DNA from: Spirochaetota bacterium
GTDB taxonomy: Bacteria > Spirochaetota > UBA4802 > UBA5550
Direction: 5' to 3'
Length of the DNA stretch: 49,196 bases
Assembly (NCBI GenBank): GCA_050298055.1
Contig: JBNKTL010000038.1
Span: forward strand, 1 to 49,196
The notes under the pieces were generated by a model. The model saw nothing but the letters and a program-made list of their open reading frames with translations, ran no database searches and was not told the origin of the DNA. The translations under genes were made by a program, and so were the position numbers. This document shows, piece after piece, positions 23,972 to 30,057 of the stretch (position 1 is the stretch's first letter; each line of letters starts with the position of its first letter).

Positions 23972-26209
23972 ATGTCATTAAACAGCTACCCTGTGAAAGG
24001 CCTTATCAACAAGCTGAAGCATATACCTTATTTCAGCAATATGGATGTGGAATCCATACTGAAAAGTATTGATTTTTTCAGCGATGTTGATGAAAAAATC
24101 ATAAAAGAAATATCGGAATCCATCCTCTTCTTTGAATATGACACAGATGATATCATCTGCCGCCACGGAAAATTTGATGACTACTTTTATGTGATCCTCT
24201 CCGGGAGTGTCAGGGCGGTGATTCCCACCGAGGAGAACCCGAAATTTGAGCTTTTTACCCTGAAGGAGGGGGACTTTTTCGGTGAGGAGATCATCTTCTC
24301 TACCATGCCCCGGGAAAACAGCATCATTGTGAATGAAAGTCTCCTGACCCTTTCACTGGACCGTGAGGCCCTGAAGCATCTCATGAACAGCTCTGCGCGG
24401 ATAAAGTCCCTTATCGACAAACAGTATATCGACAGGAAGCTCCGCAATGACCTGAGAAAGGTCCCGATCTTTACCAATCTCAGCGAGAAGCTCTTCCATG
24501 AGGTCCTTGACAGGGTTGAGCTTTACTCGGTACCGGAGAACACCGTAATATTTGATGAAGGAGACGAGGGTGACAGCTTCTACCTTATTCGAAACGGCGA
24601 GGTCAGGGTCTACCGGAATGTTGAGAAGAAACAGCGGATCATCGCCATTCTCAGCGAGGGTGAGTTCTTCGGTGAAATGGCGCTGGTCTCCGATGAGAAG
24701 AGAAACGCTTCCGTGGAGATAGCAAAAAATGCCGACCTGGTCAAACTCTCCAAGGAGGACTTCGAGGAGATCACAAGCAAGGACAGCAATCTCATGAAAG
24801 ACCTTGCCGCCGTTACCGCGGAGAGGAAGAAACACCAGAATAATGTCCTGAAAAATCCAAACCTCGCGTTCATAACACGGATGCTCATCGACCTCAACAG
24901 GGACATCAACAGGCACCTGAATATAATCTCCCAGTGTACCGTTGATACCGAAAAGGGGAGCGCGCTCCTTGCGACACTTCCCGGTTCGCGGTATCCCTAT
25001 GTCTATCCCCGTGACAGCGCGTGTGCCTCCCGGCTCCTCTACAAGCTCTCAAACAGCGACCTGAAATCAGGTGACATCGCTTTCAGGCTGCTCGGTGAAA
25101 TTTCACGTTTTATCTACAACTGCCAGAGGGAGGACGGTTACTGGGGTCAGAGGTATGGCATTAACGGCGAGGACAAGGGGATATACAGGCAGGAAGATAA
25201 TGTAGCCCACGGTGTGAGCATCCTCTGCCGGTACCTCCTTGCCGCGGGGAAAAGGAATGTCAGCCTCCCGAATCTCCACAGGCTGATTGGCGCCATAGAC
25301 AGGGGAGCGGAGTACGCGGTGAAAAACTTTTACCGGAATGAGATCCACCTCTTCTACTCCACGACCTCCATCCATGAATCTGCAATAGAGGAGGGGTATA
25401 CAATATGGGTCAACTATGCCTACCTGATGATGCTTCGCCTGATTGAAGGCATTGCCGATATGTATGGTGAGGCCGGCAGGTTCGCAAAGGAGCTTGAGCT
25501 CAAAAGCGGTTTTGAGCAGACCATTGATAACATCTTCTCCATTTCGGGACGCTACGTGAGGAGGCTGAAGCCTGACGGCGTGGCGGACCTGCGGCCGGAT
25601 ATCACCCTTCTCAGTCCCTATTTCTTCGGGACCGGGATGGAGAACGATGCGTTTCAAAACAACGAGTTTTTTGAAAACTCAATTCATTTTATCATGGATA
25701 ATCTCTGGGACCCGGACCTGGGGATGCTCCAGAGGTACCTTCCCTTTATCGAAGACCCTGAAACACATATCCATGCCGGAAACGGGCCCTGGATACAGTA
25801 TACGGCAATGCTGGCCCAGTACTTCTTCTATACGGGGAACATCGAGAGGGGCAATGAAATCATGACGGTCATAGACGGCTACATGTCAAAGGAGGGACAT
25901 CTCTGCGAACACCTGACAACACCGGAAAGGTTCTACGAGTTCCTCAAGCTTGAGTGGGAGCCGGGAAGGGATTACGATAAGGAATTTGCTCCCCATATCC
26001 TTGTTCCGGATATGCCTTACGATAATATCGTTGAAGAGATAAGCCACATGAAAAAATCTTACATTGATGTTGCGGAGCAGTGCAGGAGGGTGGGTGATTC
26101 CGGTTATATAACCTTTGCCACGCCCCTCATGTGGTCCCATGCGGAGTACTCAATGGCCCTGATGATGAGGACCGACGCTGAGCTGAAGAAGCTTGAGGTG
26201 AAGGAATAG
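23972..26209 (+). CDS. Tandem cyclic-nucleotide-binding domains fused to a GH15-like (glucoamylase-like six-hairpin) glycosidase
   Basis: GDFFGEE..PRENS and GEFFGEMAL..KRNASV cNMP cassettes; YPYVYPRD, WGQRY, QEDN, IEEG, LCEHL, ATPLMWSHAEY resemble GH15 motifs. Confidence 0.8.
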   Translation: MSLNSYPVKGLINKLKHIPYFSNMDVESILKSIDFFSDVDEKIIKEISESILFFEYDTDDIICRHGKFDDYFYVILSGSVRAVIPTEENPKFELFTLKEGDFFGEEIIFSTMPRENSIIVNESLLTLSLDREALKHLMNSSARIKSLIDKQYIDRKLRNDLRKVPIFTNLSEKLFHEVLDRVELYSVPENTVIFDEGDEGDSFYLIRNGEVRVYRNVEKKQRIIAILSEGEFFGEMALVSDEKRNASVEIAKNADLVKLSKEDFEEITSKDSNLMKDLAAVTAERKKHQNNVLKNPNLAFITRMLIDLNRDINRHLNIISQCTVDTEKGSALLATLPGSRYPYVYPRDSACASRLLYKLSNSDLKSGDIAFRLLGEISRFIYNCQREDGYWGQRYGINGEDKGIYRQEDNVAHGVSILCRYLLAAGKRNVSLPNLHRLIGAIDRGAEYAVKNFYRNEIHLFYSTTSIHESAIEEGYTIWVNYAYLMMLRLIEGIADMYGEAGRFAKELELKSGFEQTIDNIFSISGRYVRRLKPDGVADLRPDITLLSPYFFGTGMENDAFQNNEFFENSIHFIMDNLWDPDLGMLQRYLPFIEDPETHIHAGNGPWIQYTAMLAQYFFYTGNIERGNEIMTVIDGYMSKEGHLCEHLTTPERFYEFLKLEWEPGRDYDKEFAPHILVPDMPYDNIVEEISHMKKSYIDVAEQCRRVGDSGYITFATPLMWSHAEYSMALMMRTDAELKKLEVKE

Positions 26210-26212
26210 GAA

Positions 26213-26288
26213 GACCCCCTTACCCCCAGTGGGGGCATAAGAAAGTTTGGGGAAAAAATCTTACGCCCCCTTTGGGGGATGGGGGGCT
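26213..26288. repeat. REP-like composite palindromic repeat, copy 1
   Basis: GACCCCCTTACCCCCAGTGGGGGCA...AAAATCTTACGCCCCCTTTGGGGGATGGGGGG. Confidence 0.8.
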
Positions 26289-26370
26289 CTGGGTGACAGA
26301 AAAAAATTTTAAGTTGTAAATAAAGTCTTAAAAATAATACTGATTAAGAATAAAAAACCGGAGGGGATAT

Positions 26371-26804: not shown

Positions 26805-26880
26805 GGCCCCTAATCCCCAAAGGGGGCACAAGAGAATATTTATCATAAAATCTTACGCCCCCTCCGGGGGATGGGGGGTC
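26805..26880. repeat. REP-like composite palindromic repeat, copy 2
   Basis: GGCCCCTAATCCCCAAAGGGGGCA...AAAATCTTACGCCCCCTCCGGGGGATGGGGGGTC; same orientation as copy 1. Confidence 0.8.
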
Positions 26881-26890
26881 GTAGGATAAA

Positions 26891-27658
26891 TTAAAGATCC
26901 CTGGCGAGAATAGCTGCCCCGATAGCCCCGTTGATCTGGGCATGGGGAGATACGATAATATCCGTACCCAGCTTCTTTTCAAGGGCCTTAACCACACCCC
27001 TGTTGCGTGCCACTCCTCCTGTCATCATAACAGGGGGCGCTACGTTGACCCTTCTGGCAAGGGCCGTTACCCGGGAGGCCACCGATTCATTGATCCCGGC
27101 GATGATGTTTTCCCGCGACTCACCCTTTGATATGAGGGAGACAACTTCCGATTCCGCGAAAACTGTGCAGATGCTGCTTATCTTCGAGGGAGTTTCCGTG
27201 TTGAGGGCTATTGATCCCATCTGGTCGAGGTCCAGGTGAAGGGCCCGGGCCATGACCTCGAGGAACCTCCCGGTCCCCGCCGCGCATTTGTCATTCATGG
27301 CGAAGTCCCGGACCTTGCCTCCTTCAAAAAGGAGAAGGGCCTTGCTGTCCTGGCCTCCCACGTCAATGATGGACCTGACGCTCCGGTCAAGGAAATATGC
27401 CCCCGCGGCATGGCAGGTGATCTCGGTGACTGCTTTATGGGCAAAATCAACGGCATTTCTTCCGTAGCCTGTTGAGACAATTTTACTGACAGAGCCCTCG
27501 TCAAGGCCTGTTTTGGAAAGGAGCTTCTCGAAAATGTTCCGTCCCGCCTTGCCGGCATTGTAGCCGGTAAAGTCCACCATTTCACCGATAATCTTCTCAT
27601 CATCAAGGATGGCAACCTTCGCGGTTATGGAACCGATATCTATCCCAGCGGTAATCAT
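26891..27658 (-). CDS. 2-hydroxyacyl-CoA dehydratase activase (HgdC/BcrAD-type ATPase)
   Basis: GIDIGSITAK, TGYGR, EITCHA, IDVGGQDSK, MNDKCAAGTGRFLE, CTVFAESEV; ATG 27658 with GAGGAG RBS. Confidence 0.93.
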   Translation of the reverse strand: MITAGIDIGSITAKVAILDDEKIIGEMVDFTGYNAGKAGRNIFEKLLSKTGLDEGSVSKIVSTGYGRNAVDFAHKAVTEITCHAAGAYFLDRSVRSIIDVGGQDSKALLLFEGGKVRDFAMNDKCAAGTGRFLEVMARALHLDLDQMGSIALNTETPSKISSICTVFAESEVVSLISKGESRENIIAGINESVASRVTALARRVNVAPPVMMTGGVARNRGVVKALEKKLGTDIIVSPHAQINGAIGAAILARDL

Positions 27659-27673
27659 CTCTTTTCTCCTCAC

Positions 27674-28918
27674 TCACTTCCTGTGTTTCATTGTTTCCAT
27701 GAAGGCATCGATCCTTGTCCCGATCTGGCTCTCGCTGAATGAGCGCTCATCAACCATGTCCGCCTCAATGATCAGCACGGGGAGGTCAAGGTCTTTAGCT
27801 ATCATTCTCCGGAGATCATACTGGCCGAAGGAGTAGGGCTTGCAGCTCCTGTTGGAGTGCATGACGATACCGTCGGTGCTGTATTTTTTCACCAGTTTCT
27901 TTATTGTCTCATACATCCTGTCGATTGAGAGGTTCAGGTAGACACTGGAGTAGGCTATGGCCATGGATTCCAGGATCTTCTTCTCATCCAGGAGATGAAG
28001 GGTCCCGGTCCACGCGGTGGTGTATGTGTCCGCAACAAGGCAGGCGTTATGGGAGGCAAAGGTGTCGGAGAGCCACCGTGTCTTATACCAGAGGGGCAGG
28101 TTGTCCCAGAGGAGCCTGTACTCTTCCTTTGGGACGGCGCCGATCCCATCTTTGATCCTCTGGTTCATTTCTGCCTTAAGGCCGGCGTAGTAATCGATTA
28201 CCTGCTGCTGACCCCTGAGGGTCACGATAAGCGCAAGGTGGAAGAAGGCGTCAAAGGCGGACATGGGCGCCGGTCTGTGCATGGTTGTCTCCAGCACCTC
28301 CTGCCAGAGCTTCTGTCCTTCAATGGAGAGCCTCCCCGTCTCTTCCATCCTGTCCATGTCCATCTTCTTCCCGCAGACTTTTTCCAGGAACAGGATATAC
28401 TCTTTAATCTGGCTTATGACGTACTCCTTTGCCTCTTCACTGAATTCCGTATGGATAAAGGGTGTGTCGAAGATAAAGAGGGGGATATCATAATGCCGGG
28501 CCTGTACCTCGTACCATTTCATGACAGTGCCGCAGATGTTGTTGCTGCAGACGAGGAAGTCGGGTTTCGGCAGCCCCCCGATAGGGCCCCCGTTGACGGT
28601 GGAAGCGGCAATATCGGCCCGGGCGTATGAGCAGATCTCCCGGGAATACCCCATCTCCTCGGCCTTTTCGCAGAGGTCCACCCCCATCTTGCTGGCGCCG
28701 ATCATGGCCCCGTGGTTTTCCGGGTAGACCGGTATCACGTCCATTGCGATAAGGGGCTCTACGGGACCGCCACTGGTTATCCAGGCGACTTTTTTGTTCT
28801 GCTGTTCGGCGGTCTTTGCCTCGATATAGTAGGCCGTCATGATCTCTTTCATCTTTTTGACGGACTTGATCTTTCTCTTTTCCCTTTCGGGGTCTCTTGG
28901 TTTTGTTTCCGCGGTCAT
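27674..28918 (-). CDS. 2-hydroxyacyl-CoA dehydratase subunit (HgdA/BcrB-like)
   Basis: YPENHGA, EICSYAR, PKPDFLVCSNNICGTVMKWYE, NRSCKPYSFGQ, TRIDAFME. Confidence 0.9.
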   Translation of the reverse strand: MTAETKPRDPEREKRKIKSVKKMKEIMTAYYIEAKTAEQQNKKVAWITSGGPVEPLIAMDVIPVYPENHGAMIGASKMGVDLCEKAEEMGYSREICSYARADIAASTVNGGPIGGLPKPDFLVCSNNICGTVMKWYEVQARHYDIPLFIFDTPFIHTEFSEEAKEYVISQIKEYILFLEKVCGKKMDMDRMEETGRLSIEGQKLWQEVLETTMHRPAPMSAFDAFFHLALIVTLRGQQQVIDYYAGLKAEMNQRIKDGIGAVPKEEYRLLWDNLPLWYKTRWLSDTFASHNACLVADTYTTAWTGTLHLLDEKKILESMAIAYSSVYLNLSIDRMYETIKKLVKKYSTDGIVMHSNRSCKPYSFGQYDLRRMIAKDLDLPVLIIEADMVDERSFSESQIGTRIDAFMETMKHRK

Positions 28919-30057
28919 TCTTTCTCACTCCTTTCGTCCGAGAGCATCTCTACGAATGTCTCAAAGCGTGTTTTCAGCTGCCCGAAGGACTGGTTCTGTT
29001 CATCAATCTCAAGGAGGAGTGTGGGGACACCAAGCTTCTCCATGGATTCCTTCAGGTAGGGATAATCGAACGCCTGGGGGTCGCAGAACTTCAGGTAGAT
29101 GAATATCACACCCGCGGCGTTCTTTTCCTTTACCAGCTTTACCAGGTTCTCTCCCCGGGATGTTGACGTCATGTGTTTTGCCGGGCAGACATTTCTCTCG
29201 ATATACCGGTACGCGATCCCCTCAATAGGGTCCCTGGTCTCATGGATCATCCCGGTGAAGAACCGGGTCCCCGTGCAGAGATCATCCCAGATGACTGCTC
29301 CACCGGAGTCCTCCAGGAGCGAATAGATGTCGGGATGGCTGCATAGTCCCCCTGCAAGGAGTATCCTCTTATAACTTTTTCCGCTTTCATCAATCTTTTT
29401 CTCAAGGGCCTCAAGGAGCTCTTTAAGTTTCAGGAGATACTCGTTTCTCTCCATGATCATCCCCGCCTTTATGACCCGGTATATGTCCTGCCCGGATACC
29501 AGGCCCGGGCTGCCGCTTTTCAGGGTGTAGATATCTGTCAAAAGCTTTCGGATGCTGTTGTAGAGCCTGATACTATCCGTAAGCTTCTCATCACTTATTG
29601 TTATACCGAAACTTTTTTCAATATCCCTCCTGAACTTTTTGAAGACATCAACGGCATATTTTCGTGAACTCTCCGTGTCAAGCTTCACCGGGAGGACAAT
29701 GTCCAGGTGGACGGGGAAGCCGGCATTGATCCTCCAGATGTCCGAGAGCCTCTGGATGGAATCGCAGGTATGGGGAAAGACCGTTCCCGAGAGGAACGAA
29801 AGCCTTCCCGCAAGGGCCTCCTCAAGCCCGCCCCTCACAAGGGAACAGCAGTAGCTCTGCAGGTATGAGTCCGCCAGGGTGATATTCTCCTCTGTCCCGA
29901 ATATCCTGAAGGGGAGAAAATCCGCCGCGTGGAGTATCTCTTCCGGAGTATATGTGCAGAAATACCCAACGGCTTTTTTCCCCGTCTCTTCGGCGGTTTT
30001 TATTGCGTAGCCGTAGGGGTCTTCGGTGACTTCTCTGAAAATTTCCAGTTCTTTCAT
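28915..30057 (-). CDS. 2-hydroxyacyl-CoA dehydratase subunit (HgdB/BcrC-like)
   Basis: GYFCTYTPEEILHAA, HTCDSIQR, DDLCTGTR, LKFCDP, QLKTRFETFVEM. Confidence 0.9.
   Translation of the reverse strand: MKELEIFREVTEDPYGYAIKTAEETGKKAVGYFCTYTPEEILHAADFLPFRIFGTEENITLADSYLQSYCCSLVRGGLEEALAGRLSFLSGTVFPHTCDSIQRLSDIWRINAGFPVHLDIVLPVKLDTESSRKYAVDVFKKFRRDIEKSFGITISDEKLTDSIRLYNSIRKLLTDIYTLKSGSPGLVSGQDIYRVIKAGMIMERNEYLLKLKELLEALEKKIDESGKSYKRILLAGGLCSHPDIYSLLEDSGGAVIWDDLCTGTRFFTGMIHETRDPIEGIAYRYIERNVCPAKHMTSTSRGENLVKLVKEKNAAGVIFIYLKFCDPQAFDYPYLKESMEKLGVPTLLLEIDEQNQSFGQLKTRFETFVEMLSDERSEKE

Follow-up and report, generated by a model that had tools for sequence, protein, structure and literature searches.

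A soluble fusion of tandem cNMP-binding domains with a GH15-like barrel in spirochaetes, a likely glucosylglycerate hydrolase with a predicted cAMP/cGMP switch

The gene at positions 23972-26209 of the window (the whole stretch of 49,196 nucleotides of Spirochaetota DNA that was analyzed) encodes a glycosidase-like barrel joined to two cyclic-nucleotide-binding (cNMP) domains. This raises the question of which substrate such an enzyme hydrolyses and whether a cyclic nucleotide controls it. The forward strand yields a stop-free translation of 745 amino acids, homologues being mostly 740-770 amino acids long, and all motifs quoted in the first-pass annotation were found in this translation. The cytoplasmic location proposed there was borne out: the maximum hydropathy over 19 residues is 1.07 (0.45 for segments starting within the first 25 residues), which indicates that the protein has no signal peptide or membrane helix and is soluble. 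A full-length model reached a pLDDT of 86.8 and a pTM of 0.84. Our overall reading, held with just over even confidence, is that of a soluble tandem-cNMP/GH15-like fusion that likely hydrolyses glucosylglycerate and that cAMP or cGMP is predicted to switch through the second cNMP domain. The features of the gene are as follows.

23972..26209, + strand: whole gene (745 amino acids) with CNB-A, CNB-B, linker helix and GH15-like barrel
24044..24436, + strand: CNB-A, residues ~25-155, conserved non-canonical cassette FFGEEIIFSTMPRENS
24437..24841, + strand: CNB-B, residues ~156-290, canonical cassette F233-GEMALVSDEKRNA-246
24857..26206, + strand: GH15-like (alpha/alpha)6 catalytic barrel, residues 296-745
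24992..25015, + strand: YPYVYPRD subsite -1 motif with Y341, Y345, R347 and D348, corresponding to Y535, W540, R542 and D543 of dextran dextrinase
25376..25378, + strand: E469, predicted general acid (IHES), corresponding to Glu671 of dextran dextrinase
25907..25909, + strand: E646, predicted general base (C-E-H), corresponding to P334-E335-Q336 of isomaltose glucohydrolase

The gene is divergent from a chemoreceptor gene, no carbohydrate gene was present among the neighbours scanned, and promoter and terminator scans gave results at chance level. A GC-rich hairpin repeat of ~75 bp (-48 kcal/mol as RNA) lies directly 3' of the stop codon at 26209-26292 and again at 26807-26878; it is REP/MITE-like, with 66 copies of at least 55 bp on 43 contigs of the genome. 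Downstream, positions 26891-30057 of the opposite strand carry 2-hydroxyacyl-CoA dehydratase-type alpha, beta and activator genes, which likewise occur near the gene in one relative (L009).

In the survey of architectures that the first-pass annotation had suggested, the fusion proved to be conserved. With the barrel as query, 398 matches were obtained, and the best 120 of these comprised 85 long cNMP fusions, 80 of them with both cassette motifs, and 35 short proteins. Among named records the fusion occurs in Spirochaetota/Leptospirales MAGs and the unfused barrel mostly in Scalindua, while haloarchaeal plasmids carry unfused copies with 36-38% identity. Matches were obtained in 24 of 61 related genomes: 22 full-length fusions, one fusion divided between the ends of two contigs, and a remnant with an internal deletion of which residues 1-39 and 634-742 are left (L150, G043:C16). 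With the remnant left out, 23 of the 61 relatives count as carriers. In a sample of 251 genomes of the phylum all 19 fusion carriers belong to the order of the query, and the fusion was also found in one Scalinduaceae genome. The fused barrels form a single clade with 100/100 support in a tree of 43 of 102 rows, from which redundant rows, long-branched sequences and the remote GH15 outgroups were omitted. Genome G063 harbors three barrel paralogues, one of which carries cNMP domains, falls within the fused clade and was possibly acquired sideways. Other fusions of the barrel family (P0121, P0145, P0175, P0209) involve FHA, within the core family, DUF218 and MPGP-type phosphatase domains; in P0175 and P0209 an MPGP-family phosphatase scoring above cut-off is fused to more distant barrels.

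The proposed Pfam scan confirmed two cNMP_binding stretches (E 1.5e-38), but the expected Glyco_hydro_15 domain was not recovered: PF00723 gave no match to the protein at E 0.01, and the C-terminal 450 residues were without any Pfam match. NCBIfam returned a weak match to the oligosaccharide-amylase model TIGR01577 (E 0.0013). A narrow profile of the barrel found no match in the PDB; a profile built from 62 family sequences matched dextran dextrinase (E 2e-23), isomaltose glucohydrolase (1e-14) and the glucoamylase 1LF6 (1e-12). Since the matches listed for the full-length fold were cNMP proteins only, the barrel was folded separately (pLDDT 96.4, pTM 0.95). The glycosidase-like domain that had been noticed from about residue 340 is thereby recognized as an (alpha/alpha)6 barrel of GH15 type. 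Its four best structural matches among 48,161 chains are all GH15 enzymes (rmsd 2.7-3.3 A, 332-350 residues aligned), namely Kribbella isomaltose glucohydrolase (5Z3A, Z 33.5), Thermoanaerobacterium glucoamylase (1LF6, Z 33.0), dextran dextrinase (9JU0, Z 32.2) and glucodextranase (1ULV, Z 31.3), and KfIG occupies ranks 1-7 in Foldseek. Phosphorylase kinase subunits share the fold with a Z of 25.2. The barrel differs from the GH15 set in sequence, with only 16-18% identity, and its family has an invariant HxHxGNG motif and, past the base Glu, a typical helical insert of ~65 residues. Bacterial glucoamylases carry an N-terminal beta-sandwich, whereas the fusion has cNMP domains.

On alignment, both catalytic glutamates of GH15 enzymes are kept, the acid in the alpha5-alpha6 loop and the second Glu in the alpha11-alpha12 loop. 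Their positions derive from HMM-based sequence alignment with 9JU0 and 5Z3D, combined with published numbering. SIHES lies opposite SIWED of dextran dextrinase in the profile alignment, and a constant offset of 19 residues was counted against the numbering in the available text of the dextran dextrinase paper, which gives Glu671 as the proton donor (PMC12446779); the acid is thus predicted to be E469, which is present in 111/111 aligned homologues. E646, the glutamate of LCEH, aligns with the base of isomaltose glucohydrolase and is kept in 110/111. The choice of the IEEG glutamate as acid catalyst in the first-pass annotation was rejected: this residue, E474, occurs in 65/78 fused homologues but is absent from all 33 unfused ones.

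The residues of subsite -1 agree with glucose-binding GH15 enzymes, and the Y..(W/Y).RD motif, the two glutamates and the +1 arginine (R588, equivalent to R791 of dextran dextrinase) are shared with GH15 alpha-glucoside hydrolases. The acidic +1 residue of glucosidases (D672 in dextran dextrinase) is replaced by serine in 111/111 homologues; together with the retained R588, this substitution would suit an anionic aglycone. In place of W-E-(E/D) the fusion has H-E-S, and in place of E-Q it has E-H. Due to the H-E-S motif and the lack of a PF00723 match, the protein is filed as GH15-like and not as a glucoamylase. The residue preceding the base Glu is Cys or Ser in 78/78 fused homologues and Pro in 33/33 unfused ones of the first alignment, and the dextran dextrinase paper, in its available part, links this position to the placement of the second Glu (PMC12446779). 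All fused proteins come from a single clade, and Ala stands here in a few distant unfused barrels, so this difference is a lead only.

Gene context in the barrel family points to glucosylglycerate. Unfused relatives that are 39-50% identical and have near-identical active-site residues are located beside gpgS, gpgP, ggs or glycerate kinase genes. At three loci (L045, L046, L048) gpgS, above the NCBIfam cut-off, lies directly or two genes upstream, and an MggS-like GT4 gene lies downstream; at two others (L049, L114) an MPGP-family phosphatase above cut-off precedes the unfused hydrolase. Four loci of anammox-class genomes (L260-L263) show the same-direction order gpgP-gpgS-(flavodiiron)-glycerate kinase-(ggs)-hydrolase without a GT4, with gpgS and kinase matches below the equivalog cut-offs and a broken hydrolase in L262. 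The anammox-class operon set as a whole comprises L260-L264 in G150, G143, G141 and G063. In a systematic count, glucosylglycerate-pathway genes occur in the flanks of 8 of 118 loci (7 distinct). Eight operon members are spread over four branches with separate support, and a topology that unites them as one group is rejected (p-AU 3.5e-8), which shows that the link to glucosylglycerate recurs across the barrel family. Five of them differ from the fusion at no more than 3 of 40 chosen active-site or conserved positions. None of 38 fused loci is flanked by a glucosylglycerate or glycogen gene, and the substrate is therefore carried over from unfused barrels that are 39-50% identical. In the clades that branch closest to the fusion, among them the Scalindua copies beside an Amt sensor, the flanks likewise showed no glucosylglycerate genes.

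At 21 loci, including L025:9396-12038, the neighbourhood of unfused Scalindua-type copies contains a response regulator and an ammonium transporter-histidine kinase. This arrangement may only reflect synteny between closely related genomes, though nitrogen stress is a condition linked to glucosylglycerate. Two haloarchaeal copies are preceded by a sugar ABC transporter and followed by a D-2-hydroxyacid dehydrogenase-like gene, and two others come after a tartronate-semialdehyde-reductase-like gene (all matches below cut-off). Such neighbours would fit glycerate as a product.

The query genome was also analyzed for pathway genes. It encodes an enzyme of 402 amino acids with profile similarity to GpgS and, along the greater part of the chain, to mannosylglycerate synthase; a homologue is situated directly upstream of gpgS in G023. 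Curated models leave this enzyme unnamed, and from its profile matches and gene order we call it Ggs-like, a label by resemblance only, as it could make mannosylglycerate. Neither of two GpgS models gave a match above cut-off in the 61 relatives and the query genome. The genome further contains a DUF4147 glycerate kinase and two GH13_18 proteins with TETN and the loop-A Glu, which form the signature of glucosylglycerate phosphorylase (PMC7178133, available text).

The Ggs-like synthase is present in 26 of the 61 relatives. Intact fusion and synthase occur together in 19 genomes, the fusion alone in four, the synthase alone in seven and neither in 31 (Fisher p 1e-6). When kinship was corrected for with a single-gene proxy tree, which covered the 58 genomes that have the marker (three lack it), 4.8 of 12 independent pairs were concordant and none opposite; the association is suggestive and not significant (median p 0.0625). 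Of the four carriers in which this query found no synthase, two possess the phosphorylase, and one genome is 65% complete. Among 81 anammox-class genomes the synthase occurs in 6/6 hydrolase carriers versus 15/81 overall, these genomes being kin and not independent. Gene context, co-occurrence and the shared pocket thus make glucosylglycerate the likely substrate.

The reaction proposed here, and the (alpha/alpha)6 fold class, would be shared with the GH63 glucosylglycerate and mannosylglycerate hydrolases (GgH/MgH). However, GgH (5OHC) ranks only 38th among the structural matches, with a Z of 21.8 versus 33.5 for GH15, and PF22422, the GH63 GgH/MgH model, matches neither the fusion nor any other protein of the query genome and is found in 1/61 relatives. 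This lowers the case that the fusion is a GgH, not that it works like one. According to the available text of PMC5381378, GgH drains glucosylglycerate once nitrogen stress ends and is controlled by up-regulation of its mRNA; a sensor domain is not mentioned in that text.

A different reaction in the same pathway is unlikely but not negligible. The cNMP-gated barrel might cleave a related heteroside (mannosylglycerate, glucosyl-glucosylglycerate or mannosyl-glucosylglycerate) or work as a retaining transglucosylase in the manner of dextran dextrinase, to which the family profile has its best sequence match; the mechanism of GH15 enzymes is unreadable from sequence, as stated in the available part of PMC12446779. 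The MggS-like GT4 genes behind three of the hydrolases and the match of the synthase profile to mannosylglycerate synthase are consistent with a heteroside, but the glucose-binding type of subsite -1 argues against it, and the anammox-class operons combine gpgS, gpgP, ggs and glycerate kinase with no GT4. A retaining mechanism is disfavoured by the proline before the second Glu of unfused members, which they share with the inverting KfIG and AgGD.

The two tandem cNMP domains that had been assigned to residues ~25-290 agree with the Pfam stretches. In sequence as well as in fold, the N-terminal part has its highest-ranking matches among PKA/PKG regulatory subunits, which share the CNB-A/CNB-B arrangement; tandem-CNB domains of PKA/PKG also lead its matches among solved structures. 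The second cassette is canonical, as was noted on first inspection: CNB-B follows the pattern G-E-x-(A/S)-L...R-x-A with a C-helix cap arginine, and among fused homologues G234, E235, L238 and the cap R285 are kept in 78/78 and R244 in 76/78. Its spacing equals that of the cAMP-binding cassette FGEMALIDNQNRSA of Bdellovibrio Bd1971, and its cap arginine lies 41 residues past the phosphate arginine, as in Bd1971 (PMC6717892, available text). The sequence does not discriminate between cAMP and cGMP. Co-folding runs of the cNMP module and barrel with two cAMP gave 0.40, 0.00 and 0.00. Ten class III cyclase domains are encoded in the genome. CNB-A retains the FGE and R reported in the first-pass annotation (G104 78/78, E105 72/78, R114 76/78, invariant cap R155). 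A small residue is usual in canonical cassettes at the position after GEE, whereas position 107 of CNB-A is bulky, mostly I, V or L, and position 115, after the arginine, is Glu in 56/78. Due to these two differences CNB-A may have another mode of binding or lack binding altogether.

These deviations of CNB-A, and the nucleoside-binding trypanosome PKA-R domains among the fold matches, would also suit a glucosylglycerate hydrolase whose cNMP domains sense another ligand or serve only structure or oligomerisation. We regard this as improbable, as CNB-B keeps all cAMP-contact positions of Bd1971 in 76-78 of 78 homologues and the cyclases are at hand. Bd1971 (cNMP-EAL) and the mycobacterial Pat acetyltransferase, whose NCBIfam model matches the protein, are bacterial one-component enzymes with a cNMP domain fused directly to the enzyme. 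Both have a single CNB, unlike the fusion with its tandem CNB and glycosidase output. In some relatives a metallo-beta-lactamase-fold protein with two cNMP domains is encoded 3' of the fusion (L018:9944-12112, L020:9069-11306).

The first-pass annotation had proposed glycogen, maltodextrin or trehalose as substrate. A cAMP-gated exo-glucosidase for glycogen or maltodextrin is improbable to a similar and perhaps slightly greater degree than a different ligand. The GH15 fold belongs to a family that includes glucoamylases, and the query genome contains GlgX, two glucan phosphorylases and a GH13-like/GT5 fusion of 1630 amino acids. Part of this frame (G000:C35:20012-22129; L174, L183) shows a weak GH13-like region and a GT5 glycogen-synthase domain, and the conclusion from a TIGR02095 search that the genome lacks a glycogen synthase was wrong. 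A canonical GH15 of 653 amino acids is located directly behind a GT4 glycosyltransferase (G000:C17; L152:172-2130, L170:979-2124). The glycogen-synthase-like fusion occurs in 58/61 relatives versus 23 for the cNMP-barrel gene; with the separate canonical GH15, this indicates that glycogen does not explain the patchy distribution of the latter. Moreover, four queries found glycogen synthase, phosphorylase or GlgX in the flanks of 0/118 loci, the W-E-E motif is changed to H-E-S, and among the 61 genomes the fusion tracks the Ggs-like synthase and not GlgA (p 0.59). A cNMP-gated trehalase is very improbable: some unfused relatives match archaeal GH15 trehalase models very weakly (E ~1e-4), but the fusion is not associated with OtsA (6 genomes with both, 17 with the fusion only, 14 with OtsA only and 24 with neither; p 0.42), and OtsA was not found in the query genome. 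What stands of the earlier interpretation is the conserved, cytoplasmic one-component fusion with a GH15-like barrel that keeps both catalytic glutamates; its substrates are not supported as the likely ones. The fusion involves no kinase cascade, unlike PKA and phosphorylase kinase, and the parallel to cAMP-driven glycogenolysis is an analogy only.

For the preferred reading, a switched glucosylglycerate hydrolase, the following mechanism is conceivable. The Ggs-like synthase would make glucosylglycerate (alpha-glucosyl-glycerate), a compatible solute, and the barrel would cleave it into glucose and glycerate. From what is known of the family, the enzyme should be exo-acting and probably inverting, with E469 and E646 as the catalytic pair. 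By analogy with Bd1971-type sensors, cAMP or cGMP would bind CNB-B and shift its C-helix, which runs into the first helix of the barrel; in the full-length model the signal could pass from helix 272-294 to barrel helix 298-321. The effect would most likely be activation, for which we have a modest preference, so that a rising cyclic-nucleotide signal would drain the solute.

For the family as a whole, we consider it an even chance that these barrels form an unrecognised GH15-like family that represents a second, widespread type of glucosylglycerate hydrolase in spirochaetes, marine anammox bacteria, clostridia and haloarchaea. One spirochaete order would have gained the PKA-like tandem cNMP module, by which cAMP or cGMP could directly switch a glycosidase and with it the compatible-solute pool, and the FHA and phosphatase fusions would be other controls on the same barrel. 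In the literature searched, which covered few subscription journals, no description of a cNMP-GH15-like fusion or of a GH15-type glucosylglycerate hydrolase was found, in agreement with the earlier statement that no characterised example is known, and in full-text searches no glycoside hydrolase under direct cAMP or cGMP control was found. Thus, if the proposed function is true, bacterial one-component cNMP signalling would extend to carbohydrate turnover. In many producers the phosphorylase is the only known sink of glucosylglycerate (PMC7178133, available text), and the existence of a non-homologous hydrolase was left open (PMC5381378, available text); the fusion is a candidate for this missing sink. 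No paper linking Scalindua and glucosylglycerate was found in the literature searched, and the present results point to glucosylglycerate metabolism in marine anammox bacteria.
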